A stretch of DNA of 63,150 bases. Origin: a virus (taxonomy: Duplodnaviria > Caudoviricetes). Numbering within the stretch: position 1 is the stretch's first letter; each line of letters starts with the position of its first letter. Position numbers and translations under genes: made by a program. Positions 17,263 through 56,103 of this stretch are shown here, piece after piece. The notes under the pieces are model-generated. The model was not told the origin of the DNA. It did not search any database and was given only the letters and a program-made list of their open reading frames with translations. Where the stretch lies: IMG/VR virus record IMGVR_UViG_3300027872_000005, positions 1-63,150 of that record, one strand, 5' to 3'.

Positions 17263-17747
17263 GCGCTTTAGATAACATCGACGTCAGAGTGGCAACGGAA
17301 GACGATTACGAAGGGCTGTTCGAGCTGCTCGCTGGAATGCACAAGGAAATGGCGATCGCGCCGCTCAATGTCGATAAGGCAGCCGCATCGATTTCCGAAG
17401 GCGTGATAAACGGCGAAGTGCTTGTCGCGTTGGACAAAAAAGGAAAAATTGTCGGGACCATCGGTGTGATCGAGGAAAAATGGTGGTATAGCGATAGCTC
17501 ATATTTGATGGATAGATTCTTCTACACTGCACGATCTGAACGTGGCGATGAGATTGGCAAGGCGCTTTTGGAAGCGGTCACGGTGTTTTCAGATAGTCGC
17601 AATTTGCCTCTCATTCTCAGCGTTATGAATCCGAAGCGAGCGCGTCCAAACAAGCGCTGGCAGCGTATTTTTGACCGGGCAATGTTTATTCCGGCCGGAT
17701 ACGGCCTGATAGCTCCGAAAGGATCAGATGATGGGCCTGTGCGGTAG
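17259..17747 (+). CDS. GNAT-family acetyltransferase-like protein
   Basis: VRVATEDD, KIVG, FYTARSERGDEIGKALL (acetyl-CoA-binding motif A). Confidence 0.75.
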   Translation: MSALDNIDVRVATEDDYEGLFELLAGMHKEMAIAPLNVDKAAASISEGVINGEVLVALDKKGKIVGTIGVIEEKWWYSDSSYLMDRFFYTARSERGDEIGKALLEAVTVFSDSRNLPLILSVMNPKRARPNKRWQRIFDRAMFIPAGYGLIAPKGSDDGPVR

Positions 17748-18657
17748 CGACCAAACCACCCAAACCACTACGAGCGTAGTCGATCCTCAATTGCAGAAGA
17801 TGGCGAAAGACGCCTACGGCAAGGTCAACACCTTGTCGGAAGTACCGTTTGAGCCATACGGCGGCGATCGTGTCGCTGGCTTCACACCCGATCAGCAGTC
17901 GTCTTTCGATGCGATCCGAAATATGTCGGGCAGCTTCGATCCATCCGTTGCCGGTACGGCGCAGGGTTATGTGACCGACTATGCCACGGCACCCGGCCAG
18001 AACATCAATACCAGCCGGATCGTCGATGAAACCGGTCGCCTGGGCGCGATGGGAGATTACATCAATCCATTTATTCAAGGTGCTCTCAATCCGGCTATCC
18101 GCGACATGCGGGAATCCGGATCTATACATCGCAATGAGATTGGCTCCCAAGCGCAAATGGCTGGGGCGTTTGGCGATGCGCGACACGGTATTATGGAATC
18201 CGAACAAATGGAGGGCGAGACCGAAGCGATTGGTGATCTGTCAGGGCGCATGTACGCCGACGCTTGGGCACAGGCTATGGGGCTCAGGGGAGCCGATGAG
18301 GCGCGTTTCTTGACCACCGATAGCTTCAACGCCGAATCCAAAGAACGGGAGCTAGAGAGGATGTTTAGCGGCGCCAAAGGCCTATTGGGCTCACAGGCCG
18401 GTGGCATCCAGAACTGGTTGTCGGCAATCAATCCGCAGCTTGCCGCCGGAACGCAGCAGCAGCAATTGAGCCAGCAAGGGCTTAATGTCGGCTTTGAGGA
18501 TTATCTGATGGGCTATGACCATCCCTATAAAAACATGGAAGTGTTGCTCGCAGCCCTGAGCGGCCAGCCATACGATTCGACGGAAACAAAAACGACCGAA
18601 CAGCCCGACAATTCCTTGGCAACGCTCATCGGTGCTGGGCTTGGCGCCTTTCTGTAG
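17728..18657 (+). CDS. Internal virion / DNA ejection protein
   Basis: PYGGDRVAGFTPDQ, YINPFI, AGAFGDAR; hydrophobic Gly-rich C-terminus. Confidence 0.65.
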   Translation: MMGLCGSDQTTQTTTSVVDPQLQKMAKDAYGKVNTLSEVPFEPYGGDRVAGFTPDQQSSFDAIRNMSGSFDPSVAGTAQGYVTDYATAPGQNINTSRIVDETGRLGAMGDYINPFIQGALNPAIRDMRESGSIHRNEIGSQAQMAGAFGDARHGIMESEQMEGETEAIGDLSGRMYADAWAQAMGLRGADEARFLTTDSFNAESKERELERMFSGAKGLLGSQAGGIQNWLSAINPQLAAGTQQQQLSQQGLNVGFEDYLMGYDHPYKNMEVLLAALSGQPYDSTETKTTEQPDNSLATLIGAGLGAFL

Positions 18658-19111: not shown

Positions 19112-20026
19112 ATGGACCTATTAGCTGCTATCCAAGCCATGTTTAGCGGCGGTGGAATGGCTCCGGCAACCGGTTCTGTCCCTACCGCAGCTAACGTTGC
19201 TCCGGGTGCACCGCCGATGCCGTTGGGGCAGGCGGCAGGGGGGAGTCCGATGGCCGGGGGCGTACCGGCCGCACCAGGCATCGATCAATATCAGCCGCAA
19301 AACGGGCCGCTTGGCAGATTTCTCGCCACTATGTTTGGAGAGGGAGTCCCAGATCGGGTCCGGGATACTCTTGCCGGCATGGGTGCTGGCGATCCAACAC
19401 AGCCGTTCCTTACGAATTTGGGGCAGGGAGCAACAGGGGCGAGGGTCAGTCGCAAGGAACGGCTTGACCGAAAGCGCGATCTGGCGACGAAAAAACGCGA
19501 TGATGACCGGATAGAAGCCAGAATGGGCAACGAAGAAGAGCGATTGAGACTGTTGCGAGAAAACGCCGGACGCGCTGCCACAAAAGACAAGTGGAGCAAT
19601 CTCGACAAGGCATCGCAGATCATCACGCGAGAGTCAAAACGCCGGTTGAAAGAATCCGGCGACTATCTGACGACAGATCAACAATTCAAACTTTTCAAAC
19701 TCGTCCGAGAAGAAGTCGAAGCCGAAATGGGGGAGCCGGATGATTATGAAGGTTGGAGCGAAGAGGAACTTGCCAAGATAGAAAAACTGACCGAAAAATG
19801 GACCGATTATTACCGTGAGAAATTGAAAAGAGGGAGTGTTACGACGCCAGCCACGGCTGATCTTGGCGTTCCGGTCGCCGATCCTGCAACTGGCATTTTC
19901 ACCCTTCCGCCTGGATTAACGCCGGAACAGCAGAAGGAATGGTTTGAACAGATTCCTCCCGGCACCCCGGAAAACCCCACAAGAGTCATCAATCCAGCTA
20001 CTGGTCTGGAAGTTGAAAAAGAATGA
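19112..20026 (+). CDS. Probable internal virion protein
   Basis: Gly/Pro-rich N-terminus, charged helical core; position. Confidence 0.6.
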   Translation: MDLLAAIQAMFSGGGMAPATGSVPTAANVAPGAPPMPLGQAAGGSPMAGGVPAAPGIDQYQPQNGPLGRFLATMFGEGVPDRVRDTLAGMGAGDPTQPFLTNLGQGATGARVSRKERLDRKRDLATKKRDDDRIEARMGNEEERLRLLRENAGRAATKDKWSNLDKASQIITRESKRRLKESGDYLTTDQQFKLFKLVREEVEAEMGEPDDYEGWSEEELAKIEKLTEKWTDYYREKLKRGSVTTPATADLGVPVADPATGIFTLPPGLTPEQQKEWFEQIPPGTPENPTRVINPATGLEVEKE

Positions 20027-23000
20027 CGCTTATCGAGGATAAGGTCTATGAATTGTTGGGCGGCGTTGAAGAGACGGAGCCGATCGATCTATTAAAGTTG
20101 CCGGGGTTCAAACCAGTATCCGACACCCCGATTCCACGGGCAAAGCCCGTCAAGGCTGAACCAATCGATTTGTTGAGTATGCCGGGATTCAAGCCGGTAG
20201 AGCCGGTCGAGCCGGACTTGTCAGCTTCTGCATCCATCCCCTCCGATGAGGCATACGCCGCTTGGAACGAGAAAGAGGGAGTCGAAATACCGGCCCTGAA
20301 ACCACGTATCGAGCGCGGCGTCGATACTGACGTTCTGGATTCCGCCTTCGAGCGCACGGGCGAAGTGCCGCTGATGCGTAAGGACGAGTTTTCCGAGTGG
20401 GCCAGCGACATTCATCAAAAAATAAGCCAATCACCGGCGGGGCCGCATTTCTTCAAGCATCTGGACGAATTGCGCGATGGTCGCATGACGTCGGCTGAGT
20501 TCGAGAAAAAGGTAAGGTCTGAAATCCTGCCAGGCTCCGTTAAGGGTGGGGAACAGGCCAAACCATTAGAGCCAAGCGAGGACGCCTATCTGGAAGGCGT
20601 AGCCGGGACAGCACGGTTCACGGGTGGGCCGGGACAACTGGAAAATCTCGACCAGCTTCTTCCAGAGAGTGTTTTTGGCGATTATGGCCGGCTTACGGAA
20701 AAACAGGGGATTCAGGAGGTCAAGGAAAGATTGCCAGCGGATGTGGCCAAAGCGAAACAATTGATGGAGGAATTGCCGGAGGAACAGGAACGTAGCAGGA
20801 CACCGGGTCTGCTTGAGGAAGGTGGGCCGCAGAATCTACGCGGTGAAATGCTGAAAAGGGAACGCAAAGGACGCTACGAGCAGCGTTCCAGAGAGGCCCT
20901 TGAGGCGTTTCAGAAAGTTCTCAAGGATCGTAGCCAGCTTGCAGGCGAAATGCCGCTTCCGAAATTTTCCAAAATGAGAGACGCGCTTGATCGTTTCGCT
21001 TTTGGACTTTTCCAAGCTGTGCCAGGCGTGATGAAATGGAGCGGCATTGCTGCTGGAAATGTCATCCCCGGCGTCGATGAGGCGAACGCCGTTAAAAAGG
21101 CCGGCGATTATATGGAGGAACGGCTGCTTAAAGCCTTCCCCGGTGACGAGACGCGGGCAGATGATTTAATATCCGGCCTGGCGGGCGGCGGCGGGTCGAT
21201 GGGTGGATTTGTGGCTGGCGGCGGCTTGATGGGCGGCCTTTTCAAGATGTTGGGGATGCCGGCCCGTGCGGCGCGTACTACCGGCGTTGCAGCGATTGGT
21301 GGCGCTGTGGAAGGGCCGGGCGGCTACGAGGATGCTGTAAAGTTCGGCGCTACGGCAATTCAGAAATATACGGCGTTTTATCTCAGAACCGGGCTTGGCC
21401 TGACCGAAGCACTGCCGATCGATCGTTTCTTTATGCGGCTGCAAAATCGCAGCGGTGGCAGGGTGTCAAGGATGCTGGCAAATACCCAAGCACAAGGCTT
21501 TGAGGAATTTCTGCAAGAGTTTGGCCAGAATGTCGGCGGTGATGTAATTGCAGCCGGCTTGGGCGATATTTTCCCCGGATATGACCCTGATCGAAAGATT
21601 GATTGGGACGCAGCGATCAAGAACGGCACAATCGGCGCTATCCTGGGCGGTATTATGGGTTTTGGCACCGGTATGCCCAGCGGGCACAAGCCGCCTAAAC
21701 TGCCAGACATCCCGCCTGAAATTGCCGAGCAAGAAGCCAGGCGTCGGATGCAGCCGCCGCCATCGTTCCCAGTGGAAGAACCTCCGGGGCCAAGCGCGGG
21801 ACCGGTCACACCACCGGCTCCCGTGGCTCCGCAGGCTCCCACGGTAGCTACCGAGCCCGAGCCGTCAGAGGGCGGCGTCCAGCCGCCAGAACCAGAAGAA
21901 GAAAAGCCGGAACAGGTAGCGAGCAGGGACGAAGCCGCTTTGCTGCGCGGTGCTGGCTGGATTGATAAAGAAATCTTCGGTATGGATAGGGAAGTTCTCG
22001 ATGTGAACCTTGAAAAAGCTCGCAAACAACGCGCGGAGCCTATCTATGACGATGATGAAATTCAAACGGAAGATGCTGGACCGGCGGCTGTCGAAACGCC
22101 AGGCGTACCAACACGAACTGAACCAGATGAAGGAGAGCCCGGACAAGAAGGTGTCGCAAGCGTCGAGGAACTCGACGAAACTGGCACTAAACCGGTGGAT
22201 CAAGACGCTGGACAAGGAGATCGACGTCCTGTTTCACCACCAGAGCCGACGAAGGAAATTGAGCCTGAGGAGCCCGAACCTTCCGTAGAACAATTTGAGC
22301 CGGAGCACATCGTCGATGACGATCCGGACTACGATGAGCGTATGGACGAATTGGAGGCCGAAGGCACGGCAGAAAAGCCGGTTGTCGTAGAAACGGCCGA
22401 GGATCTGGAACAGGCCGCAGCGGTGGCCGATCCGGACCCGCCAGAGGGCAAGATAAAAGCCGGCACCTATCAAAAGGGCCATGCCAAGATCCACGGCCTC
22501 GATGTAACAATCGAGAACGCCAAGGGCTCTGTGCGGCGCGGGCGGGGCGCTGACGGCAAAGCTTGGCGCGTCAAAATGCCGGCCGCCTACGGCTACATCA
22601 AGCGCACCGAAGGCGCAGACGGAGATCAGGTCGATGTCTACATCGGCGACGATCCCGCGAGCAAACAGGTGTTTGTCGTCGATCAGAACACCCTTGAGGG
22701 CGCGTTTGACGAGCACAAGGCCATCATGGGCGTCGGCACCGTCGAGGAAGCCCGTGCGCTTTATATCGAAGGTTTCTCTGACGGTAAGGGCGAGCAGCGT
22801 ATCCGTGCCATCACGGAAATTCCGATCGATGAGTTCAAGGAATGGGTCAAAAGCGCTGACTCAACAAAACCACTTGGTAGAGTTGACAAGCCCAAAAAGC
22901 CGCCGAAGCCGGGCACCCGTCCACAACTATCAACTGACGAGGCGACTTACAAAGGAGACTTAGTTCCTGCTGTTCGTGTGGGCGATGATTTATTTATAGG

Positions 23001-24264
23001 AGATACTCATCAAAGCGCACTCGCCAAAGCCGTTCAACATTTTGGTGAAGATAGTCCGGAAATCCGCGCCTTTGAAGCCCTCGACGATCCCATGCAAAAC
23101 ATTGGGACACTCAAAGGCAAACGACCTAGCGGTGTATCTAAGTTTCTAGCCGGTGTATCCGGCGACCCCAAAGCAATCGTCGATGCCATGAAAAAACGGC
23201 GGGACACAAAGCCGACCGCTCGTGGGCCATCTGATCCTGAATTGAGAATGGTCAAAATGCCGGCCCGGCGAATATTGAAAAAAGCTGGCGGCGTTGATCC
23301 CAAAAGTCCGCTTGCCGGCGAATTGCGGCACATGGGGATCACTAACAAATCGGCGCTTGGCCTGTTCAAAAAGGGTGGACGAACCGCGGTCGATAATTTT
23401 GTCGCCAGCGACCATGACATTTTCGCGAACATTGAAACCAATAATGGCTACGTTCCGCAAGAAGTGTTTTTTGAAGCGCTGCGCGATGAAATGTCAGGGG
23501 CGCCGTGGCGTTCGGTTGAAGAACAAACGGCGATCGATGAGTTCAAAGGCGCGATGCGCGGCGGTGATGAAGAGCAGCGGACTCGTGAGGACATCATTGC
23601 TCTGATCGAGGAAAATGGTGGTGAAGCCGATCAGGAATGGGTTAAAGCAGCGATGGATTTGGTCACGGCTGGTGAAGCCGTTGACGAAGCGATCGCGCTT
23701 GCCGCTGAAAACCTGCAAGTGAAAGAGGCGTCTGATGAAGATGCTATCGAAGAAGATGCAATCCCGTTTGGCGAAAGGCCACCTGAGTCTGAAAGAGACA
23801 CGGGAAGTCGTGAGCCAATTGCGCCGCCGCGAAGCGAGCGCATCCCCGCTGGAGAAGAAGATACTGCAGAGGCATCGGAAGCGGTTCGCGATGCTGGTCA
23901 GGATGAGGGCCAAACAGCAGTAGAGCCCGGCGCCGAAGGCAAGCCGCAAGGCGTCCTGCCTGGCACCGAGAAAATCAGCGACGCCGAACTGGCACAGCGC
24001 AAGGCTGACCAACGCCTCAAGCCCAAAGCAGATCAACAGCAGGCCGATGAAGGTCTGTTCAGCGACGACAGCCGGCAGGTTGATCAGGTCGATGAAGATC
24101 GCAAGCCAACCAAACCGCTTGATGATATCCACATCACCATCAAGGCCGACATTGCCGGCACCGAAGAGACGGCGACAATCCGCTTTACGGCGGTTGAGGC
24201 GCTGAAACTGGTCGATGACCGGATCGCTGGTCTGCAGCAGCTCAAGGATTGCGTGTCGGCATGA
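20023..24264 (+). CDS. Giant internal virion / polyvalent protein with inorganic-pyrophosphatase-like domain
   Basis: 1413 aa; hydrophobic Gly-rich helices; GTYQKGH...IENAKGS...YGYIKRTEGADGDQVDVYIG...FDEHK at about 22460-22850. Confidence 0.75.
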   Translation: MTLIEDKVYELLGGVEETEPIDLLKLPGFKPVSDTPIPRAKPVKAEPIDLLSMPGFKPVEPVEPDLSASASIPSDEAYAAWNEKEGVEIPALKPRIERGVDTDVLDSAFERTGEVPLMRKDEFSEWASDIHQKISQSPAGPHFFKHLDELRDGRMTSAEFEKKVRSEILPGSVKGGEQAKPLEPSEDAYLEGVAGTARFTGGPGQLENLDQLLPESVFGDYGRLTEKQGIQEVKERLPADVAKAKQLMEELPEEQERSRTPGLLEEGGPQNLRGEMLKRERKGRYEQRSREALEAFQKVLKDRSQLAGEMPLPKFSKMRDALDRFAFGLFQAVPGVMKWSGIAAGNVIPGVDEANAVKKAGDYMEERLLKAFPGDETRADDLISGLAGGGGSMGGFVAGGGLMGGLFKMLGMPARAARTTGVAAIGGAVEGPGGYEDAVKFGATAIQKYTAFYLRTGLGLTEALPIDRFFMRLQNRSGGRVSRMLANTQAQGFEEFLQEFGQNVGGDVIAAGLGDIFPGYDPDRKIDWDAAIKNGTIGAILGGIMGFGTGMPSGHKPPKLPDIPPEIAEQEARRRMQPPPSFPVEEPPGPSAGPVTPPAPVAPQAPTVATEPEPSEGGVQPPEPEEEKPEQVASRDEAALLRGAGWIDKEIFGMDREVLDVNLEKARKQRAEPIYDDDEIQTEDAGPAAVETPGVPTRTEPDEGEPGQEGVASVEELDETGTKPVDQDAGQGDRRPVSPPEPTKEIEPEEPEPSVEQFEPEHIVDDDPDYDERMDELEAEGTAEKPVVVETAEDLEQAAAVADPDPPEGKIKAGTYQKGHAKIHGLDVTIENAKGSVRRGRGADGKAWRVKMPAAYGYIKRTEGADGDQVDVYIGDDPASKQVFVVDQNTLEGAFDEHKAIMGVGTVEEARALYIEGFSDGKGEQRIRAITEIPIDEFKEWVKSADSTKPLGRVDKPKKPPKPGTRPQLSTDEATYKGDLVPAVRVGDDLFIGDTHQSALAKAVQHFGEDSPEIRAFEALDDPMQNIGTLKGKRPSGVSKFLAGVSGDPKAIVDAMKKRRDTKPTARGPSDPELRMVKMPARRILKKAGGVDPKSPLAGELRHMGITNKSALGLFKKGGRTAVDNFVASDHDIFANIETNNGYVPQEVFFEALRDEMSGAPWRSVEEQTAIDEFKGAMRGGDEEQRTREDIIALIEENGGEADQEWVKAAMDLVTAGEAVDEAIALAAENLQVKEASDEDAIEEDAIPFGERPPESERDTGSREPIAPPRSERIPAGEEDTAEASEAVRDAGQDEGQTAVEPGAEGKPQGVLPGTEKISDAELAQRKADQRLKPKADQQQADEGLFSDDSRQVDQVDEDRKPTKPLDDIHITIKADIAGTEETATIRFTAVEALKLVDDRIAGLQQLKDCVSA

Positions 24265-24682: not shown

Positions 24683-26029
24683 ATGAGCGATCGAATGCAC
24701 GTTGCGATCGTGGCCCTTGGGCCATCGTCGATGCAGTTTTTGAAATACGCAGAAGGGGCCGGTGGTTCCAAGTCGTACTGCGATGAAGTTTGGGGCGTCA
24801 ACATGAACGGCGGCGTCCTGCAATGCGATCGGATCTTCCACATGGATGATTTGAAAATACAGGAAATGCGTATAGCCTACGGCTCTCCAATCGCCGAGAA
24901 GCTAACGGGTATGCTCGCCTGGATGAAAGATCATCCCGGGCCGATCTACACGTCTCGCGCCTATGCTGACTATCCGGGCTCGGTGGATTATCCGCTTGAG
25001 GACGTCATTCGCGCCACCGGGGCGCCCTATTACAACAACACGGTGCCTTATGCGCTGGCTTTAGCGATCTCGCTGCCGGTCAAGAAAATGAGCCTTTTCG
25101 GCTTGGATTACACCTATCCCGATAGCCAGGCGGCCGAAACCGGCCGCGCCTGTTGCGAATATTGGCTTGGCCGAGCACACGGCATGGGCATTGAGGTTTT
25201 CATCGCACCGGAATCGACACTGATGGATGTGTGCAAACCGGTTTCGTCGAAATTCTACGGATACGACACCCTCGATGTGTCGGTCGAAATCAAGAATGGC
25301 GACGTGCAGGTTCGCACCAAGCCGAAGCTGAAACTGCCCGATATCGGTGAGATTGAGCGCACCTACAATACTTCGGCATGGGCCTGTCGGTCCAAGCATG
25401 AAGTCCGTGGTGGTGAAGCGCTGGACCGGCTAATGGCCTATGAGGACGTGAAAACCGTTCTTGATGTCGGTTCGGGCGAAGGTGAACAGGCGCAGATCAT
25501 GCGCGATGCGGGCTTAAAGGTGACGACTGTTTCCTATATTCCGCCGGCCGACATCGTAGGCGACTTTAACAAAGCGCTGATCCCCGTCCCGTCCGTCACC
25601 GATAAAGACGGCAACGATATCAACGGATTTGACGCTATTTGGGCGAGTCACACGCTCGAACATCAAGTGGACGTCCATACGTTTTTGAAAAGGTGCCATC
25701 AGCTTTTGCGAGACGATGGTGTGTTTGCGGTCACTGTGCCGCCGTCGCGAGACGGTGTTCTCGGTGGCCATGTTACCCTGTGGAACACAGGTTTGGTTTT
25801 ATACAATCTGATCATAGCGGGTTTTGACTGCTCCGAGGCGCGAGTCTCAGGGTGCTACCCCTGCGCACTGAACGAAGTTCCTTACAATCTCAGCGTGATT
25901 GTTCGCAAGAAGACCGCTCAATTGCCGGATCTGGATATGGATTTTGGCGATATCGGGCGGCTTCAAAACTTCTTTCCGGTTCCCGTTGCGCATGGGTTCG
26001 ACGGCAACCTCACACCTGTTCGATGGTAA
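24683..26029 (+). CDS. Fusion of a glycosyltransferase-like (GT42/Maf-like) domain and a class I SAM methyltransferase
   Basis: N-terminal VAIVALGPS, EVWGVN, SLFGLD; C-terminal VLDVGSGEG, FDAIWASHTLEH. Confidence 0.7.
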   Translation: MSDRMHVAIVALGPSSMQFLKYAEGAGGSKSYCDEVWGVNMNGGVLQCDRIFHMDDLKIQEMRIAYGSPIAEKLTGMLAWMKDHPGPIYTSRAYADYPGSVDYPLEDVIRATGAPYYNNTVPYALALAISLPVKKMSLFGLDYTYPDSQAAETGRACCEYWLGRAHGMGIEVFIAPESTLMDVCKPVSSKFYGYDTLDVSVEIKNGDVQVRTKPKLKLPDIGEIERTYNTSAWACRSKHEVRGGEALDRLMAYEDVKTVLDVGSGEGEQAQIMRDAGLKVTTVSYIPPADIVGDFNKALIPVPSVTDKDGNDINGFDAIWASHTLEHQVDVHTFLKRCHQLLRDDGVFAVTVPPSRDGVLGGHVTLWNTGLVLYNLIIAGFDCSEARVSGCYPCALNEVPYNLSVIVRKKTAQLPDLDMDFGDIGRLQNFFPVPVAHGFDGNLTPVRW

Positions 26030-48721: not shown

Positions 48722-49840
48722 TCATTTGCCTTCCAACTTTTTGAATTGGGCGTGGTAAGCCTCGACAACCTCTTCCCAATCGGCTTCTGAGAGTTTGTCG
48801 CCGCCAAATTTCCCATTGGCGTAGGGATGCACTTCTACATTCCAATATTTCTCCAACTTTGATTGCACTTTGAAGTCCTTAAACACGCTGATCACGCCGT
48901 CCTTGAACAGATCCGGATCGCTGATCACGCCGTCTGGCTCGTGTGATCCCATCGCCTTCGTCGGTGGCGGCGGTCCTTCCTCGATAGCGGCAGCGTTTCG
49001 AGCGGCTTCCCTGGCCAGCACATCCTCAACTTCGTCCATCACTACCGCAACATCTTCTGGCATTATGTCGGTGCTTTTGCCGTTTTCCGGTACTGGTTCG
49101 TCTCGAACATTGCCAGCGCTCGACCAATCCGGAAACGGCTCATTCGGCTTTCGTTTCAGGGCTTCCGGGATGTCCGGGTAGCCTTCTACCGCCTCTGCTA
49201 CCGAATTAGGTGCGACATTCACCGTCGCAACGAGCTCGCCAGTCACATCGTCGATGACGTCTGCCTTGTAAATTATACCGGGCGCCGGCGCTTCATTCTC
49301 GACCGGCGTTACGTCTGTCATTGGGCGCACATCGATGCCAGCGCGTTCAGCTTCATCAACGTCCATGATGCCGGCAAAACCAAAGGCATAGCGGGCGGCT
49401 TGGATTGCAGATTTGTGGCGTAACATCCGGCGTTTCCATTGTTTCCACGGTTGGGTGTCGCGGTAACACTCGGCCATGTATTCGGTGACGACGATTGGGT
49501 GAGTTCGATCTTTGCGCCATATCCGACAACTGATTGAAACCAGATTGCCGTCCTGGATATTGTCGTCAAATTCGAGACCATCCATCTGCGGGTGGCTGTT
49601 CATCAGGTTCATCCAACCATCGATTGACACGATAGGCTGGATGCCACCGCCTTTTTTTGGAAAAGCGTAGATTTCCCGCGTGATCGGATTCAAGTTGTAT
49701 TCGTTTGCCACAACCAAAAATGCGGCAAATTCCTCACGAGTGCAGTTATCTGGCACCACGGTCTTGCGTAGGGTTTGCTCGAACGGCGCAGGCTCCATTC
49801 CATAACGATTGGCAACGATTGTCGTGACTGATTTGGTCAT
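48722..49840 (-). CDS. bet: Single-strand annealing protein, Red-beta/RecT family
   Basis: LNPITREIYAFP, IVSIDGW, PWKQWKRRMLRHKSAIQAARYAFG. Confidence 0.92.
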   Translation of the reverse strand: MTKSVTTIVANRYGMEPAPFEQTLRKTVVPDNCTREEFAAFLVVANEYNLNPITREIYAFPKKGGGIQPIVSIDGWMNLMNSHPQMDGLEFDDNIQDGNLVSISCRIWRKDRTHPIVVTEYMAECYRDTQPWKQWKRRMLRHKSAIQAARYAFGFAGIMDVDEAERAGIDVRPMTDVTPVENEAPAPGIIYKADVIDDVTGELVATVNVAPNSVAEAVEGYPDIPEALKRKPNEPFPDWSSAGNVRDEPVPENGKSTDIMPEDVAVVMDEVEDVLAREAARNAAAIEEGPPPPTKAMGSHEPDGVISDPDLFKDGVISVFKDFKVQSKLEKYWNVEVHPYANGKFGGDKLSEADWEEVVEAYHAQFKKLEGK

Positions 49841-49852
49841 TGGTTTGCTCCT

Positions 49853-50887
49853 TTAGACCGCGATTTTCACTTCCGAAACGCTGACGCCTGGTAAGCTGCC
49901 GCCAGCCCGCACGACCTTATCGGCGATCTTCTGCGCCAGCTCGCGCATTTCATCGTAGGTCTTGAGTTCCTCGATGAGCGCGTCGTAATCCTCGATCACT
50001 GCGACTTTCTTTTTTCTGTTTGACGTGCGCTTGCCCATCCTGCCGCCGACGCGGGTTTTGCTGGCTTCCTCGATCTCGTCTTTGCTCATTTCCGGGGAAG
50101 CTGCTTGCAGCGCCTTCTTCTTGATGTTCTCAATCGCGTCGATCAGTGTTTGCAAGGGTTTGCGCACACTGTCAGCGGCTTCCTTGGCCATTGTGAGCAT
50201 CGGTAGCCATTTCCCTTGGACATCGCTTTTGCCCTTGTCCCACGGCTCCGCTTCCAGCTTGCGCAAGCTCTCGGCTTTCTTGCGCAAATCGTTCGCCTTG
50301 TCGCGCAGATTGGCGATCCTGTCGGCGTCGTCTTTGGTTTTCAGATCGCCGGCCAAGGCTTCCTCGATAGCGCGGGAAACATCGCCTATCTCATAATGCA
50401 GCCGAACGTGTTCATCCGGCGGCTCGTTGTGGCCGATGCCGGGGGCGTCAGTGTGAAGTCTCACGTCCAAGGTTGAATCGTCCTGTAGGGCGTCTTTGAC
50501 GGCTTCTGGCGTCAGGTCGATGTCGGCGGTCTCGTCTGGCCAGCGCTCGCCGGCCATGACGCTTTCAAACAGTTCATGTTCAATCGGGTGTTCGCAACAG
50601 GAGAGAAACGTTTTCCAATGTGCATCGTCGCCTTTTTTATCAATCGGCTTCAAATTTTTTGAGCCGATCTTGACCTGCATGTTGCCGCTGGAGTTCCGCC
50701 AGATCGAGACCGGCTGCACCGAACCGTCTTTCCTTGCTATTCGATAGAATCCGGGCTGCGGCCCGTCTTTTTCGTGCCATTCTTTGATTTGACCATCCAG
50801 ATTCATCCGCCAGTGGCGGTATTGATCAACGCCGTATTTGTCGTTTGCAGCCAGGTTTCTTTTGTCGTCTGGCATCATTTTTGCCAT
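49853..50887 (-). CDS. Coiled-coil protein next to recombinase
   Basis: PGFYR, GIGHNEPP, C-terminal LPGV. Confidence 0.75.
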   Translation of the reverse strand: MAKMMPDDKRNLAANDKYGVDQYRHWRMNLDGQIKEWHEKDGPQPGFYRIARKDGSVQPVSIWRNSSGNMQVKIGSKNLKPIDKKGDDAHWKTFLSCCEHPIEHELFESVMAGERWPDETADIDLTPEAVKDALQDDSTLDVRLHTDAPGIGHNEPPDEHVRLHYEIGDVSRAIEEALAGDLKTKDDADRIANLRDKANDLRKKAESLRKLEAEPWDKGKSDVQGKWLPMLTMAKEAADSVRKPLQTLIDAIENIKKKALQAASPEMSKDEIEEASKTRVGGRMGKRTSNRKKKVAVIEDYDALIEELKTYDEMRELAQKIADKVVRAGGSLPGVSVSEVKIAV

Positions 50888-50890
50888 CGT

Positions 50891-51256
50891 TCATTCCTTC
50901 GTGTCTTGATTGTCGTTTGCTTGTTCTGTCGATCGTTTTTTCACGCCAGTCTTGAAAATCACTGTTTCCAGCGCTTTGATCTGTACCTCGCTGGTCAACC
51001 GGGTGGTGGCCATTATCACGGCGGACGCATCCTGGCCCTGCATCGCGTTTAAGGCTGTAACGCCGAGCAATTCGCCGAATTGCTGGATCACTATGCCGAT
51101 GATTTTCTGGACCTCCGTGCCACGGTGCAGCTCGGCGATGAACCAATCCTCGTAGGGAAATATAACGGCGAGATTCAGCCGCGCCTCTAGTCCGCGATTC
51201 GTTGGCTCATTCTGAAATCGCTTGGCGTTGATTTTTCTGATATCGGGTTTTGGCAT
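50891..51256 (-). CDS. Hypothetical protein
   Basis: AGGAG RBS. Confidence 0.7.
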   Translation of the reverse strand: MPKPDIRKINAKRFQNEPTNRGLEARLNLAVIFPYEDWFIAELHRGTEVQKIIGIVIQQFGELLGVTALNAMQGQDASAVIMATTRLTSEVQIKALETVIFKTGVKKRSTEQANDNQDTKE

Positions 51257-51273
51257 GGGGATTCTCCTGTGTT

Positions 51274-51302
51274 CTTATTGCATCGGCAACGTTAATTATC
51301 AA
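51274..51302 (-). promoter_or_regulatory. Putative promoter with operator motif in the spacer
   Basis: TTGATA-N17-AATAAG on - strand; spacer contains AACGTTGCCG. Confidence 0.45.
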
Positions 51303-51303
51303 G

Positions 51304-51495
51304 CTATCCGGCTTTTAATTCGATATATAAATTCATCAGAATTTCAATGGTTTTCGACACCGCCCTGGCTGAGTCCATATCCGGGTGCATCCGCATGTGC
51401 GCGATCGAATGGAAGGAAACGCCGAGCGCTGTGGCGGCTTCCGGGTTTGTCCATCCCATTTCCCTTTGTGCGGCCCTGAATTGTTCGTGGGTCAT
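51304..51495 (-). CDS. Small XRE-type HTH protein
   Basis: MTHEQFRAAQREMGWTNPEAATALGVS. Confidence 0.8.
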   Translation of the reverse strand: MTHEQFRAAQREMGWTNPEAATALGVSFHSIAHMRMHPDMDSARAVSKTIEILMNLYIELKAG

Positions 51496-51827
51496 TCCAG
51501 TGCTCCCAGGCTTCGCATGTTGCTCTGTTCCGTCCGCCACAGTTCGAGGTTGATCTCGTGGCGTTTGCGTTCAAAGCGCAGGTTCGCTTCGTAGCCAACC
51601 GCCTTGGCTCGTTCTTCGTGCGCGGCTTTCGTGCTGGCGTGGGTTGTGGCCAGCGCCTTGCGTTCTTCGTTGTTGCCTTCGGAGAGCAGAAACACAGCGG
51701 CCGTGGTTTCCTTCACCAGAAATTCAGTGCGTTCTTTGTGGCCGGTGGCGAGGCCAGACTCTTCGCTGTTGTCTCGCAGCCAGTCTACCGCTTCCTGCAC
51801 CATTTCATCGGTGATCAGTTGCCTCAT
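51492..51827 (-). CDS. Helical protein, possibly UvsY-like
   Basis: ERKALA...LELWRTEQSNMR pattern; function is a weak guess. Confidence 0.55.
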   Translation of the reverse strand: MRQLITDEMVQEAVDWLRDNSEESGLATGHKERTEFLVKETTAAVFLLSEGNNEERKALATTHASTKAAHEERAKAVGYEANLRFERKRHEINLELWRTEQSNMRSLGALE

Positions 51828-52102
51828 TCCTCGCCCTCGCGGTCTCGCTGCTCATCACGAAGGTAATCGCCGCGATCCTGTTCGGCACCTGCTGCTTCTT
51901 CCGATAGTGCCTCTTGGATCGCTTCGTCGTATTCAATATCGATTCTGTTCCAATCAATCTTCTGATGTTCGATGCCGGCATCCTCGAAAAAACCTTCGTT
52001 GATCCCAACATCCGGCTCAGCTCGGCACCATTTGCCTGAGACTGAAACTTCGATCTCTATGGTGATCGTTCCTGTCGTTTTCATGTTTTTGCTTCTTGCC
52101 AT
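51824..52102 (-). CDS. Acidic hypothetical protein
   Basis: Coupled ORF; AEPDVGI motif. Confidence 0.7.
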   Translation of the reverse strand: MARSKNMKTTGTITIEIEVSVSGKWCRAEPDVGINEGFFEDAGIEHQKIDWNRIDIEYDEAIQEALSEEAAGAEQDRGDYLRDEQRDREGEE

Positions 52103-52356
52103 CCTGCCGCGTCCTTGACCGGCGTGGTTTTGTACTCGCCCAGGCTGGCGCGGCGGATCAGTTCACCGGGGTACAGTTTGATCTCGCCGGTCCATTTCTG
52201 TGACCGATTGCTCCATTTCAGGACGCGGACAAATCCAGTCTTGTCGCGCCGGTGAACCAGCGCATATTGGCTCCCTCCCTGAGTGCCATACTGGACAACG
52301 ATGCCGTCGCCACGACGGACTTTCTGGTAGATTTCAAAGCCTGAGATTTTGGTCAT
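52081..52356 (-). CDS. Hypothetical protein
   Basis: AAGGAGC RBS. Confidence 0.7.
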   Translation of the reverse strand: MTKISGFEIYQKVRRGDGIVVQYGTQGGSQYALVHRRDKTGFVRVLKWSNRSQKWTGEIKLYPGELIRRASLGEYKTTPVKDAAGWQEAKT

Positions 52357-52418
52357 TTCTTGCTCCTTGTTGGTTGGGTAAACGCGAACCGCCGCAACGC
52401 GCGACGGCTCTGGTTCAC

Positions 52419-52799
52419 TCAGCCACGGATCTGGATCATGCCACGACGGCTCTGGTAGGCTTCTAAGGCTTCTTGGTCAGTTTCAGGGGGGGCATTTGCT
52501 CCTTTGGTTCCATCGTATGTTCCTAAAATTCCACCGATCATCTGAACAGTAAGAGCATCATCGATCATTGGCTGTAAGTCGAAGTCGGCCAAGGGGTGGT
52601 TGTCCTCGATTACCTCGACCAAAACCATCGTCTCGGTGTTGCCAAGAGGGCCGTGGATGCGGACGCGCTTGTAGATCATGGCATCGTTGCCAAGCTGCCG
52701 ATTAACCTCGATAGCTTCGTCGCCTGTCTCGTGAACACTCCACAAGCCTTGATCGGCTTCCTTGCACCAGTGCATCAAAATGTAGTCAGTGGTTTTCAT
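52419..52799 (-). CDS. Hypothetical protein
   Basis: GGGAGC RBS before MKTTDY. Confidence 0.6.
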   Translation of the reverse strand: MKTTDYILMHWCKEADQGLWSVHETGDEAIEVNRQLGNDAMIYKRVRIHGPLGNTETMVLVEVIEDNHPLADFDLQPMIDDALTVQMIGGILGTYDGTKGANAPPETDQEALEAYQSRRGMIQIRG

Positions 52800-52950
52800 G
52801 TCGTTGCTCCCTGATGGCCTTGACGGCCTTTTGGTATTCGGCCCATTTCTGGTCAAAATCCCGTTTCCAAGAATAGTAGTCCGCGACGAGGATAATCACG
52901 CCGCCGACCACCATGATGATGATGAGGTAGAAGAAAGGGTCGGAGGTCAT
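52786..52950 (-). CDS. 54-aa single-TM protein (absent from ORF track)
   Basis: GGAG RBS; MTSDPFFYLIIIMVVGGVIILVADYY... Confidence 0.65.
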   Translation of the reverse strand: MTSDPFFYLIIIMVVGGVIILVADYYSWKRDFDQKWAEYQKAVKAIREQRHENH

Positions 52951-53156
52951 GGTCTTGTGCTCCGCGCCATATCGACAAGATCGACCTGGCGGCTGTCATC
53001 GCCGAATAAGCCGTCGTCAGCCTGCTTCTGCGCTTTCTTGGGTTTCAGTGGCTCGTCGGCCAGGCGCTGCGCCTGTTGCGCTTCGCTGATCCGCTCAGCA
53101 CCCGGCAGGACACCTTGCGGCCTCCCATCGGCACCTAGTTCAAGTTCTGTGTTCAT
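52947..53156 (-). CDS. Stand-alone paralogue of the 23923-24093 module of the giant virion protein
   Basis: AGGAGC RBS; 40/57 aa identical, ungapped. Confidence 0.85.
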   Translation of the reverse strand: MNTELELGADGRPQGVLPGAERISEAQQAQRLADEPLKPKKAQKQADDGLFGDDSRQVDLVDMARSTRP

Positions 53157-53166
53157 GTGCTTGCTC

Positions 53167-53391
53167 CTAGAATGTGCAACAGCCGCAGCATGGTGCATCT
53201 TCGCACCGCCCGCGCCTGTTCTGGTAGAATGTGCCGCCGCTTGTCTGAACGACTGTGACCGCCGGCGCGTCTTCGTCGGCGCAAGCTAGATGCGCGACTT
53301 GCCAGCCTCGACCTACCCGGCGCAGTGTCCCGGCTTTGGCCGCAACGGGACCATTGCAATGCTCGCAAGTCCCAGCATAACGATTCAACAT
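53167..53391 (-). CDS. Cys-rich metal-binding early protein
   Basis: CEHC...HLAC and GRCEDAPCCGCC; AGGAGC RBS. Confidence 0.75.
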   Translation of the reverse strand: MLNRYAGTCEHCNGPVAAKAGTLRRVGRGWQVAHLACADEDAPAVTVVQTSGGTFYQNRRGRCEDAPCCGCCTF

Positions 53392-53418
53392 GGTTTTGCT
53401 CCTGTTTCAGATGGCTAC

Positions 53419-53488
53419 AACCTATGCCAATATAGCATCATTGTAAACCCGGCAACGTTAATTTATTGTCTGCGCCGAAACGTTGCCG
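53419..53488. promoter_or_regulatory. Divergent promoter pair with inverted operator motifs
   Basis: Rightward TTGTAA-N17-TATTGT (53441-53469); leftward TTTACA-N17-TAGGTT (53447-53419); CGGCAACGTT (53450) and AACGTTGCCG (53479). Confidence 0.7.
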
Positions 53489-53508
53489 AAACGATGGAGA
53501 ATTGATCG

Positions 53509-53742
53509 ATGGGACGCATAAAACGTCATCGCAGCAAAACCGAGATTGATGCATTAGTGGATGCGATTTCGAACCTGGGCGGCGAACTCGCGGCATCAAT
53601 CGCAATCGGAAATATCAGCAAAGCCGCTGTGCAAAAATGGCACATCAGCGGTGTACCGGCGGAACGCTGCGCTGATCTGGAACGGCTCAGCGGCGTACCC
53701 AAGGGGCTGTTAAGGCCGGATTTGTTTGAGCTGCCGGCATGA
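53509..53742 (+). CDS. Cro/YdaS-like HTH regulator
   Basis: ISKAAVQKW...VPAERC...LRPDLF. Confidence 0.85.
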   Translation: MGRIKRHRSKTEIDALVDAISNLGGELAASIAIGNISKAAVQKWHISGVPAERCADLERLSGVPKGLLRPDLFELPA

Positions 53743-53754
53743 GAAGGAGCAAAC

Positions 53755-54909
53755 ATGCGCATATTTCTGGCGAAAATCAGGAAACTCTGGCGTCGGTGGT
53801 TTCCAAAGCGGAAAACCCGTAGGCCGAATTTACCGCGCCAGACGTTTGAGGGTGGTGGCCATTATTATCTGGGCGACCTTCTTGAAACGCTTGATGACTA
53901 CGGCGACGTTGTTCGCTCGCTGAAAAACCATCACCCGGACGCCTACGATTATTACACTCAAGTTGGATGCTCTGTTTTCTCGGAAACCATGGTAGTCGAT
54001 AGGCAGCTACACCCGCGTTGGCGCGATGGATCAAAGCGCCCCGCCATTATGATGTGCCACTGGAAACAGGCTGAGAAATCGCGCTGGTGGGGGGATAAAG
54101 ATGTTGATCAGGACGACACAATTTGGCCAGCGTTTTCGCTGCTTCACAAGATGAGAATGGTGTCGGGGGTACAATTCACGAACGGCGATATGTATGAGTG
54201 CATCCTGTTCTACCGAGAAAAGAAAAGCGACAAAATTATTTGCGGGATGCCGTTCTATATGGCAATCGATGCTGTGGGTGATCTGTCTATTATGCGGGTC
54301 TTGAAACAAGTGCCGTCACTGTTGCCTTCTAAAAAGACGCGATATTTGAAGGGCCAAGTGCAAGGTCTGCGGAAACAAAGTCACTCACTGAATGGCCACA
54401 CAATCCAGCGCTGGGGAATGCCGTGGTATTTGCAGGAAATGTCAAAAGATCACAAACTGAGCCCCAAAAAAATAGCTGAAATCTTGTTCATCACGACTGC
54501 CGCATTCAGTGAAACGTCAGCAAATGGTCTCCTGATCCGGGCCAAAAAGAATGAAATTTGTAGCGCTTTCGCAATCGATCTGCTGAGAACGCCATATTTT
54601 TTCAAGGACCGGATCAAGGTCAAGACGCCAAGTGGCAACACCAAACCGATTTTTCATATTGTCCGGACACATCCACGCAAGGGGTCAAAATTAGTTAAAA
54701 CACATTTTCGCGGGCTACGGCGGTTCAAGTGGCATGATCACGATGTAACGATTTCGATGCCAGGATACCATCACGCGCCCGTTCTGAGCCATTTTGATGC
54801 GACCGCCTATAGGTTTAACGATCCATTGGCCGACCCTGACACAATGGATGATTTGAAAAAAGTCGGTGCAGAGTTCGACAAACACATGGAAAAAGGATGG
54901 AGATCATGA
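53755..54909 (+). CDS. Hypothetical protein with C-terminal HxVRxHxR...HFRG motif
   Basis: 384 aa; AAGGAG RBS. Confidence 0.8.
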   Translation: MRIFLAKIRKLWRRWFPKRKTRRPNLPRQTFEGGGHYYLGDLLETLDDYGDVVRSLKNHHPDAYDYYTQVGCSVFSETMVVDRQLHPRWRDGSKRPAIMMCHWKQAEKSRWWGDKDVDQDDTIWPAFSLLHKMRMVSGVQFTNGDMYECILFYREKKSDKIICGMPFYMAIDAVGDLSIMRVLKQVPSLLPSKKTRYLKGQVQGLRKQSHSLNGHTIQRWGMPWYLQEMSKDHKLSPKKIAEILFITTAAFSETSANGLLIRAKKNEICSAFAIDLLRTPYFFKDRIKVKTPSGNTKPIFHIVRTHPRKGSKLVKTHFRGLRRFKWHDHDVTISMPGYHHAPVLSHFDATAYRFNDPLADPDTMDDLKKVGAEFDKHMEKGWRS

Positions 54910-55106
54910 AAATCATCATTGAGCACGACGGCGTGAAGCGTGAAATCAAGGGTCTGTTTCGAGTGTGTCTCGGGGAGAATGATCTGAAAACCATGATTCA
55001 ATGTCTGTCGCAAAAGCATGAGGAAAAAAAGAGCTATGGTTGGATCGACATTTGCGAAAGACCAATCCCAGGATTAGACCTGCGACCGCTTAGCTGGAAA
55101 AAATGA
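54906..55106 (+). CDS. Hypothetical protein
   Basis: Coupled ORF. Confidence 0.6.
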   Translation: MKIIIEHDGVKREIKGLFRVCLGENDLKTMIQCLSQKHEEKKSYGWIDICERPIPGLDLRPLSWKK

Positions 55107-55510
55107 TCTGCCGCTGGTTCGGCCACTGGTGGCGCAAGGGTAAGCTGATCGCTGACCCAGGCGCTACCCATGTTGGCGAAATGTGGACGTGTCGCATCTG
55201 CGGAAAATTTGAAGAACACCTGTTGCCCGGTATCCGCTATGCTGGCTCAAGCGAATATGTGAACGCCCCGGCCGAGCGCCATCGCCTTCACATGGGCCAA
55301 GCTCAATATGAGTTCACACCACCAGAGCGATCAACGCAGGCCGAGCGCGTTGCAGGCAAATGTCTCAACTGCGGTTGGTCCGGCCAGGTGCTGTTGTCGT
55401 CGTTTCCGCGTTTTTTCGATTATGATAATTGTCGCACCCGCAGTATTTGGTCGGAGACGCCATGTCCATCGTGCAAGGGCCGTCTCACAATTACCGAAGC
55501 GCTTAAATGA
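55103..55510 (+). CDS. Zn-ribbon protein
   Basis: CRWFGH...CRIC, CLNC...CPSC. Confidence 0.65.
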   Translation: MICRWFGHWWRKGKLIADPGATHVGEMWTCRICGKFEEHLLPGIRYAGSSEYVNAPAERHRLHMGQAQYEFTPPERSTQAERVAGKCLNCGWSGQVLLSSFPRFFDYDNCRTRSIWSETPCPSCKGRLTITEALK

Positions 55511-56103
55511 TCCCGTTACCAACAGGACAGTTCGATGTCATTCTCGCCGATCCACCTTGGAAATTCGCCAGCAACAGCCGTGCCAAGCCCGGCCGAAACG
55601 CACGGCGACACTATCCGGTCATGCGGCTGGACGATATCGCCGCGCTCCCCGTCAGGTCTCTGCGGGCCACAGATTGCGCACTGTTCCTGTGGATCACTGG
55701 TCCCATGCTCGTTATTGGGGCGCATATACCTGTGATGCAAGCCTGGGGGTTCAGGCCATCGGCAATCGCCTTCACCTGGGTCAAGCTCAATCCAAAGGCT
55801 CCCGGATTGTTCACCGTTGCCCGCGACTATCACATGGGCGGTGGTTTCACTACCAGAGCAAACGCAGAATACTGTTTACTGGGCGTCAGGGGCCGCTCAC
55901 TGCGCGTTAGCAAGTCGGTGCGAGAGTTGATCGTCGCGCCCCGCCGGCAGCACAGCAGGAAGCCAGACGAGTTCTACGAGCGCGTTCAACAGTACGTTGG
56001 CCGTGGGTATGTTCCCGAACGACGCATAGTCGAACTGTTCGCGCGGCAACAACGCTTAGGTATCGTGCCGTGGGGAGACGAGATGGAGAAATTTGATGGT
56101 TGA
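55507..56103 (+). CDS. MT-A70-family N6-adenine methyltransferase
   Basis: DVILADPPW, LFLW, FTWVK, HSRKP, ELFAR. Confidence 0.92.
   Translation: MIPLPTGQFDVILADPPWKFASNSRAKPGRNARRHYPVMRLDDIAALPVRSLRATDCALFLWITGPMLVIGAHIPVMQAWGFRPSAIAFTWVKLNPKAPGLFTVARDYHMGGGFTTRANAEYCLLGVRGRSLRVSKSVRELIVAPRRQHSRKPDEFYERVQQYVGRGYVPERRIVELFARQQRLGIVPWGDEMEKFDG

Follow-up and report, generated by a model that had tools for sequence, protein, structure and literature searches.

Giant multi-domain proteins which are delivered with the DNA have been described from phages and conjugative elements (PMC5512222), and the authors argued that these polyvalent proteins are packaged and injected (Iyer, Burroughs, Anand, de Souza, Aravind 2017, PMC5512222). 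According to the main text of that work, polyvalent domains, including a kinase domain, a Toprim primase and a 2H phosphoesterase, are also found in related elements as genes of their own. Proteins of other mobile elements are described as engaging the host beta sliding clamp by a short Q-anchored peptide, namely the transposases of insertion sequences (IS; PMC4549789) and MuC of phage Mu (PMC12867686), and Gp168 of phage Twort is presented as a small clamp inhibitor which occupies the DNA channel (PMC8565349). The DNA considered here is a marine tailed-phage record of IMG/VR (IMGVR_UViG_3300027872_000005; 63,150 bp; CheckV completeness 97%), and "the window" denotes this whole stretch. It encodes one peptide module twice, as a segment of a 1413-amino-acid (aa) protein and as a stand-alone (solo) gene of 69 aa on the opposite strand. 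The 1413-aa protein carries the InPase domain of the systems in PMC5512222. Unlike the globular domains named there, the module, with about 55 residues, is predicted to form an extended peptide, and none of the Pfam families derived from that work (LPD1-39, InPase, ART-PolyVal and others) matches it. The module belongs to a widespread family which is deployed almost exclusively in one form per genome, and we propose, with a probability of roughly 0.55, that it is an autonomous host-docking peptide binding a host hub protein at DNA entry, supplied either by injection or by early expression.

The products of the 69-aa and 1413-aa open reading frames (ORFs; coordinates in Table 1) have 44 of 68 residues in common with one gap (BLASTP E value 1e-23), and the match spans aa 1298-1365 of the larger protein. 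Its ungapped core pairs aa 3-62 of the solo protein with the fused copy at 41/60 identical residues and 129/180 identical nucleotides. Between the two cores, first, second and third codon positions agree in 50, 50 and 29 of 60 codons, respectively. The ratio of nonsynonymous to synonymous substitution (dN/dS) of the pair is 0.10 by NG86 and 0.07 by YN00, with a saturated dS of about 1.8-2.3. Because the third codon positions are scrambled and dN/dS is this low, both copies are coding and under purifying selection; the same pattern, together with the saturated dS, indicates that the duplication is old and that both copies are translated and constrained. The original prediction, which had been made from the letters and translated frames of the window, had reported 40 of 57 identical residues without gaps, had quoted codons from either copy (CAA GGT GTC CTG CCG GGT and CAA GGC GTC CTG CCT GGC), and had suggested selection on the protein. 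The identity was recovered over the same 57 residues, the codons are correct, and selection is borne out by the dN/dS values. A chance or non-coding origin of the 69-aa ORF is ruled out by dN/dS and by the homologues described below. The genome of the phage itself was searched for the module, and the two copies were found with no third. The third motif of the solo copy reads Q57-V-D-L-V-D, whereas the fused copy has Q-V-D-Q-V, which is atypical at position 60.

The extent of the family was revealed only by an exhaustive HMMER search. Against 1.84 billion cluster representatives, phmmer gave 371 matches with an E value of at most 1e-3, of which 39 reached 1e-10 or better. In a word-indexed protein search, the near-length class contained only the query itself and the longer class two fragments at contig ends. 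Lengths and column statistics were examined in 151 family sequences, of which 78 are longer than 500 aa (up to 6044 aa), 22 have 131-500 aa and 51 have 130 aa or fewer. The module occurs in giants of 1300-6000 aa, typically at residue 900-2000, and genuine solo genes encode 56-130 aa. When four giants were compared with Pfam, the module was found after InPase and before ART-PolyVal or LPD38, and one of the four was without any Pfam domain. The place of the module in the giants is always a low-complexity linker between recognised domains. One giant frame of 4833 codons (G030:C1:29302-30099, minus strand) has two tandem copies about 430 nt apart.

The signature of the 151 sequences has three parts, i.e., a predicted beta hairpin, E-x-[GT]-x-x-G-K-P-Q14-x-V-[IL]-P-G-A-E, a helix, S-D-A-E-L-A-Q-R31-[RK]-A, and a coil, P-L-[KR]-P-K-x-x-Q43-K-P-x-D-x-G49-L50-F51-[GS]-D-x-x-x-Q57-x-[DE]-L60-[VFL]61-D. 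Both Q43 and F51 are invariant (151/151), Q57 and G19 are each present in 149/151, position 59 is Asp or Glu in 141/151, and position 60 is Leu in 128, Phe in 12 and Met in 6. About 20 positions are strongly conserved across the 55 residues. The AlphaFold2 (AF2) model of the 69-aa protein, based on an alignment of 26 sequences, has a mean predicted local distance difference test (pLDDT) of 80.8 and a predicted template-modelling score (pTM) of 0.36. It contains strands at residues 5-7 and 13-15, followed by a helix (25-34), a long coil (35-59) and a short second helix (60-66), so that the module is modelled as an extended peptide and not as a globular domain. The window protein belongs to no family of Pfam, NCBIfam or PHROGs, and the 26 short members likewise had no match in these collections save for MarB at chance level (E value 0.02-0.03). 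The PDB held no relative of the module (best E value 0.12), and the ESM Atlas returned only clusters annotated as hypothetical protein.

From the conserved columns, a degenerate DNA pattern was built, which recovered 94 stretches of IMG/VR and 25 of prokaryote genomes at one per species; a profile check upheld 92/94 and 21/25 of these, respectively. Of the 119 loci together, the module lies in a closed frame of at most 250 codons, clear of the locus ends, in 70 and in frames of more than 600 codons in 37; 6 loci are ambiguous, and 6 are without a profile match. The confirmed genomic matches are alphaproteobacterial in 19 of 21 cases, mostly from Hyphomicrobiales (Bradyrhizobium, Mesorhizobium, Hyphomicrobium, Aminobacter and Aurantimonas, among others); the other two come from metagenome-assembled genomes of a Planctomycetaceae and an Acidobacteriaceae member. 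In a typical solo copy, a variable N-terminus precedes the retained C-terminal two thirds (A-x-R-[RK]-A...P-Q-x-P-C-D-x-G-L-F-S-D...Q-L-D-L-[VI]).

The joint occurrence of the two forms was determined in 42 further viral records (40 kb or longer) which have the module, each searched in its entirety. The giant copy alone was found in 18 records, the solo copy alone in 21, and both in 3 (G006, G022, and G041). One form per genome was thus present in 39/42, a figure which may overcount the records with only one form, since the sample was ascertained by the strict DNA pattern and 11/42 records are less than 90% complete. The InPase domain was detected in 12 of the 21 records with a module-bearing giant, always in the same frame as the module, and in 0/21 solo-only records. 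The latter count led us to reject, as a general explanation, a role of the module as an immunity or inhibitor segment for InPase. The solo and fused copies of G006 and G022 are only 35% and 29% identical, and rank 98 and 97, respectively, of 115 among each other's relatives.

The window pair is closer. Its members are mutual best matches in one alignment (63% identity), and in a wider one the partner is second of 115. All further neighbours of the solo copy of the window are embedded in giants, which indicates that this solo gene is a module of the giant type, spun off from or captured by a polyvalent gene. A search with the capsid protein gave 16 related loci (45-65% identity), and, apart from four on short contigs, their records were covered for the module. 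It was found in none of 11 of these, only 2 of which are complete, and the twelfth, G033, has the fused form alone. The original prediction was that of a two-stage effector, delivered from the virion and then re-supplied by early expression, or of a free copy which competes with the injected one, and it would have the two forms travelling together. Profile searching confirmed that the fused and stand-alone forms are each widespread; their joint occurrence in only three of 42 records, with distant copies in two of these, and their distribution among the capsid relatives speak against such a general strategy. Because co-occurrence is exceptional, the two forms look like alternative supply routes for one function at DNA entry. 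The window pair is a selected, lineage-specific paralogue pair and an exception to this rule.

Based on these results, we propose that phages and conjugative or plasmid-like elements, mainly of alphaproteobacterial hosts, would deploy the module when their DNA enters the cell. It could be packaged and injected as a segment of a giant polyvalent protein, or be made from a short gene (about 56-130 codons) within an operon of the early or establishment type which, elsewhere, would often hold ArdC and a small protein ending in I-P-F. The phage of the window would use both routes, with the solo gene as an old paralogue, by duplication or capture, of its own polyvalent segment. Docking would employ short linear motifs, namely the invariant Q43, G-L-F, and Q57-x-[DE]-L-[V/F/L/I], by which the module may bind, and block or recruit, a hub protein of host DNA metabolism. 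The beta sliding clamp, DnaN, with its peptide-binding pocket as the docking site, is the candidate that can be named most concretely.

A link to DNA metabolism is suggested by the surroundings of the module. When the ORFs within 4 kb of the 70 solo loci were clustered, three neighbours recurred on the same strand. A helix-turn-helix (HTH)-like protein of about 88 aa is encoded at 23/70 loci. The anti-restriction protein ArdC (ArdcN and MPTase-PolyVal, confirmed by Pfam) is encoded within 4 kb at 13/70 (L087:6472-7344 (-), L039:4240-5205 (-), and 11 more). Immediately upstream of the solo gene, 16/70 loci have a conserved gene of about 90 aa (L017:8941-9243 (+), L036:2071-2562 (-), L028:3398-3667 (+), and 13 more), the products of which all end, at the extreme C-terminus, in I-P-F (15) or V-P-F (1); acidic residues just before this tripeptide are present in only some of the 16. 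This family has the consensus MFDSNAM.EL.H..RDRYQR.GGGGA.KVY..SKAY.DARG...MSPFRRA... and no match in Pfam or PHROGs, its AF2 model is weak and helical (pLDDT 63; the pTM of the models of module and family is 0.36-0.38), and neither the giants nor the window contain it. [quoted passage not shown] The concept of docking at the SSB C-terminus is treated in PMC10164576, and the 90-aa family may, judging from its terminal residues, be an SSB-tip mimic.

In the giants, I-P-F, I-P-G-[WF] or I-P-D-W is located 10-150 aa upstream of the module in 17/77 proteins, mostly in an acidic context, versus 78/1298 control windows (6%) from the same proteins (odds ratio 4.4, p 7e-6), although the search expression was chosen after inspection of the data. 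These motifs, including that of the window (EEDAIPFGE), are internal and not terminal as in the SSB tip. That an IPF motif accompanies the module in giants and at solo loci alike suggests that the two are functionally linked, and points to hubs of host DNA metabolism as the target. Serine resolvases are encoded near 8 of the solo loci, and many of these IMG/VR "viral" contigs may be plasmid-like elements or integrative and conjugative elements.

The published clamp-binding motif is Q-phi-x-[L/M]-[F/L] or Q-phi-x-[L/M]-x-[F/L]; QLDLF is described as the strongest binder, the last position as permitting Ile, and flanks which are acidic or C-terminal as favourable (PMC11139829). Comparable with the Q-anchored peptides of the IS transposases (PMC4549789) and MuC (PMC12867686), the third motif, Q57-x-[DE]-L-[VFL], is similar to the consensus QLDLF, and it matches clamp positions 1, 3 and 4 in nearly all copies. 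The Gln of position 1 (Q57) is present in both window copies, and the Leu or Met of position 4 is found in the solo copy (Leu), while the Gln of the fused copy does not fit. Among the solo proteins, 11/71 stop 0-1 residue past the pentamer, and for 7 of these the end is exactly Q-x-[DE]-L-F. In the 58 distinct solo tails, position 5 is Phe in 6 of the 8 which end there versus 5 of the 50 longer ones (Fisher p 2.7e-4, for a C-terminal-Phe pattern likewise chosen after inspection), which is the behaviour expected of a C-terminal clamp motif. In the accounts of the IS transposases and MuC the motif is appended to an enzyme or regulator, whereas here the peptide is the entire gene product; moreover, most copies of the module differ from those proteins in being without the canonical Phe or Leu at position 5, and clamp binding is putative. 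The candidate also resembles Gp168 (PMC8565349) as a small phage protein that would be aimed at the host sliding clamp during takeover. It differs in its candidate site, the peptide pocket, and in the phylum of its host; Gp168 was compared by its published description and no sequence relationship was sought.

Three clamp or docking peptides had been named in the original prediction. Of these, QGVLP lies outside the published definitions, GLF is invariant but without the spacing to a Gln, and QVDLV agrees at positions 1-4 and fails at position 5, with QVDQV of the fused copy failing at position 4 as well. Co-folding of the 69-aa protein with two copies of Caulobacter DnaN (DPO3B_CAUVC), a stand-in from another host, gave scores of 0.68, 0.68 and 0.70 versus 0.51 for one control with an unrelated partner, a difference inside the 0.20 margin required and one to be read in the light of the abundance of clamp-peptide complexes among solved structures; it counts neither for nor against the clamp. 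On the evidence as a whole, we regard DnaN as a possible target of the module, and would not expect it to be the actual one.

Several points weigh against the proposal of a host-docking peptide, and above all against the clamp as its partner, in addition to the reservations about sampling and pattern choice given above. Injection, early timing and binding of a host protein are steps that we infer from architecture, gene order and motif resemblance. At clamp position 5 or 6, where Phe or Leu is expected, both window copies have Val, and neither QVDLV nor QVDQV is canonical. The pattern Q-x-x-[LM]-[FL] fits 42/139 representatives and 38/115 locus copies, and the strict published forms fit 12/139 and 15/115; the commonest fifth residue is Val and the commonest second residue is Thr. 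Half of the longer solo tails (25/50) continue as ...[VI]-E-M-F, e.g., QLDLVEMF, and would fit an amphipathic helix that could bind another partner. The AF2 model has residues 60-66 as a helix and not as an extended strand. Finally, neither the invariant Q43 nor the Q...G-L-F spacing has a counterpart in clamp motifs. The same observations favour an alternative in which the likeness to clamp motifs is coincidental and the module docks, by an amphipathic C-terminal helix and the G-L-F turn, on a host or defence protein other than DnaN, e.g., a member of the SSB interactome, a recombination or restriction nuclease, or RNA polymerase. The links to the SSB-tip-like IPF motif in solo loci and giants, and to ArdC, can be read in its favour as well. 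Against it, the searches of Pfam, NCBIfam, PHROGs, the PDB and the ESM Atlas point to no partner, and the truncated solo proteins end exactly at Q-x-[DE]-L-F, as a C-terminal clamp motif would. We consider this alternative tenable and somewhat doubtful. A more elaborate version of the docking proposal joins both lines of evidence, such that alphaproteobacterial elements would deploy a two-part kit of replisome-hub mimics, composed of an acidic, SSB-tip-like I-P-F peptide and of the module as a non-canonical, high-avidity clamp ligand. The parts would be delivered as adjacent segments of an injected polyvalent protein or from two adjacent small early genes, and would seize or silence the interaction network of host DnaN and SSB when foreign DNA enters. 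The phage of the window would then be a rare case of supply of the clamp-ligand part by both routes, with a partly degenerate injected copy (L60 to Q). Taken as a whole, such a kit seems to us unlikely.

A coupling of the two forms within one infection, as originally envisaged, would have the injected copy act first and the early solo product then re-supply it, compete with it or switch it off. Purifying selection on both window copies, and their position as closest or near-closest relatives, would be in keeping with it. So would the Gln of the fused copy at position 60, where 146/151 sequences have Leu, Phe or Met and the solo copy keeps Leu, for the two activities could differ. We consider it improbable, given that both forms occur in so few records, that the copies of G006 and G022 are distant, that 21 records have a solo gene with neither a giant copy nor InPase, and that no capsid relative searched carries both forms. 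Still less credit is due to a role inside the phage or the polyprotein, with the module as a processing site, a signal for packaging or ejection, or an intramolecular inhibitor of a neighbouring enzymatic domain, and with the solo copies as by-products or regulators of that process. The constant position in low-complexity linkers would agree with this, proteolytic processing has been proposed for polyvalent proteins (PMC5512222), and genes for ArdC-type MPTase proteins lie near 13/70 solo loci. In contrast, half of the carrier genomes have the solo gene only and no module-bearing giant, the operons which hold the solo genes serve regulation or establishment and are not structural modules, and the conservation of about 20 positions over 55 residues exceeds the needs of a cleavage site. 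The proposal of an autonomous docking peptide with two alternative routes of supply is, in our judgement, the best account of the family.

With respect to the locus itself, the solo gene was correctly predicted to be the second of the leftward operon (Table 1). A ribosome-binding site, AGGAG, is located 7 nt before its ATG at 53156 and is overlapped by the stop codon of the upstream 74-aa gene, while its own stop codon, TGA, shares the sequence ATGA with the start codon of the next gene, so that the solo gene is translationally coupled within the operon. The 69-aa start is preferred over an 83-aa alternative (from 53198), since the conserved module begins at residue 3-6 of the 69-aa form. The Cys-rich product of the 74-aa gene has C-x-x-C near its N-terminus and ends in C-C-G-C-C-T-F. 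A replication initiator or DnaD-like loader is encoded on the rightward arm, as is a DNA methyltransferase (phrog_359; 55507-56103 (+)). There was no polymerase among the phage proteins scanned, a scan which was not a full census; together with the initiator or loader, this counts towards the clamp as the candidate target. From the gene order and the lambdoid layout, it is reasonable to expect that the solo gene is expressed early. In the PL operon of phage lambda, the short ORFs between the immunity switch and the Red-like recombination genes encode Kil, Gam and cIII, small host-takeover proteins each of which binds one host protein. The solo gene has an analogous position, but no homology to these genes, and none of Kil, Gam and cIII is known to be duplicated inside a virion protein.

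The neighbouring ORFs of 74, 54, 145, 91, 92 and 111 aa in the operon were each found at 0 loci beside solo copies elsewhere. A sigma-70 scan of 52700-53800 returned no promoter site, a result that is uninformative for a probable alphaproteobacterial host. Among public sequencing runs, the phage was found in one DNA run, a seawater metagenome, and in no RNA run. In INPHARED, there was no match to the 69-aa protein (tblastn) or to positions 50000-56000 of the window (blastn), and no isolate relative was found.

The 1413-aa gene is located in a plus-strand block with genes for a terminase, a portal/adaptor-like protein and the major head protein. The presence of the hallmark InPase domain supports the earlier view that its product is of the polyvalent type thought to be injected. 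InPase is its sole domain recognised by Pfam, whereas a polyvalent protein is described as holding several distinct effector domains, 2 to 15 in number (PMC5512222), and the module is a second unit of the protein only if it is accepted as a domain. Together, the InPase architecture and the gene position within the head/tail block suggest that this protein may be packaged in the virion and injected. In relatives, LPD38 shares a polypeptide with the module (P0004, with InPase; P0013, with ART-PolyVal), so that in the window, where LPD38 is found in a second polyvalent protein, the cargo may be split over two genes. Directly after the 1413-aa gene, a protein of 448 aa with a class I S-adenosylmethionine-dependent methyltransferase domain is encoded at 24683-26029 (+).

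Table 1. Features of the window that bear on the two copies of the module (positions in the 63,150-bp record).
Feature	Position	Strand	Remarks
DNA-ejection-protein-like gene	17728-18657	+	Just upstream of the 1413-aa gene, plus-strand structural block
1413-aa polyvalent protein, presumed to be packaged in the virion and ejected	20023..24264	+	InPase; PHROG matches to giant and minor-head proteins
InPase domain (aa 810-943)	22450..22851	+	Pfam PF18823, E value 4.6e-47
Acidic internal I-P-F motif, context EEDAIPFGE	23761..23769	+	aa 1247-1249; 49 aa upstream of the fused module
Fused module copy	23914..24093	+	aa 1298-1357, near the C-terminus of the 1413-aa protein; from the alignment
Second polyvalent protein, 2367 aa	31700..38803	+	Pfam LPD5, LPD1, LPD38; without the module; same structural block
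Bet/RecT-like annealing protein	48722-49840	-	phrog_252, E value 2.7e-61; further down the leftward strand
Exonuclease-like gene	49853-50887	-	phrog_10477, E value 5.6e-14; further down the leftward strand
Third operon gene, 54 aa, hydrophobic N-terminal stretch	52786..52950	-	Start overlaps the solo stop; weak phrog_13897 match
Stand-alone module gene, 69 aa	52947..53156	-	Second gene of the leftward operon; from the ORF map
Solo module core	52971..53150	-	aa 3-62: hairpin, helix, coil with Q43 and G49-L50-F51, then Q57-V-D-L-V-D
First operon gene, 74 aa, Cys-rich	53167..53391	-	phrog_2656 and phrog_5664, both of unknown function
Divergent Cro/YdaS-like HTH regulator gene	53509..53742	+	Pfam YdaS_toxin (2.9e-08), P22_Cro (2.8e-04)

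That domains of polyvalent proteins also exist as solo genes is already known in general from PMC5512222. What appears to be new is this uncatalogued module, its peptide-like nature, its near-exclusive deployment in either one form or the other, and its association with the IPF motif. A literature search with the motif strings of the module returned only papers on the clamp (for QLDLF) and no description of the module, and the word "clamp" is absent from the main text of PMC5512222. The supplements of that work list many unnamed domains associated with polyvalent proteins, and the module may be described among these.

Few cargoes of phages and plasmids are as large or as poorly understood as polyvalent proteins, and most of the length of these proteins lies outside named domains. 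The module adds one more recurrent unit to them, which is short, sharply conserved, widespread, and used interchangeably, be it injected as a segment or encoded by a tiny early gene. For the phage of the window, the original claim is tempered, since the duplication is real and selected, yet lineage-specific. For the family, a peptide of about 60 residues is a convenient experimental handle on whichever host hub is attacked when DNA enters the cell. Were the sliding clamp or the SSB network to be that hub, one would have in the module a natural peptide that inhibits or recruits a validated antibacterial target, together with a new class of establishment factor common to phages and conjugative elements.

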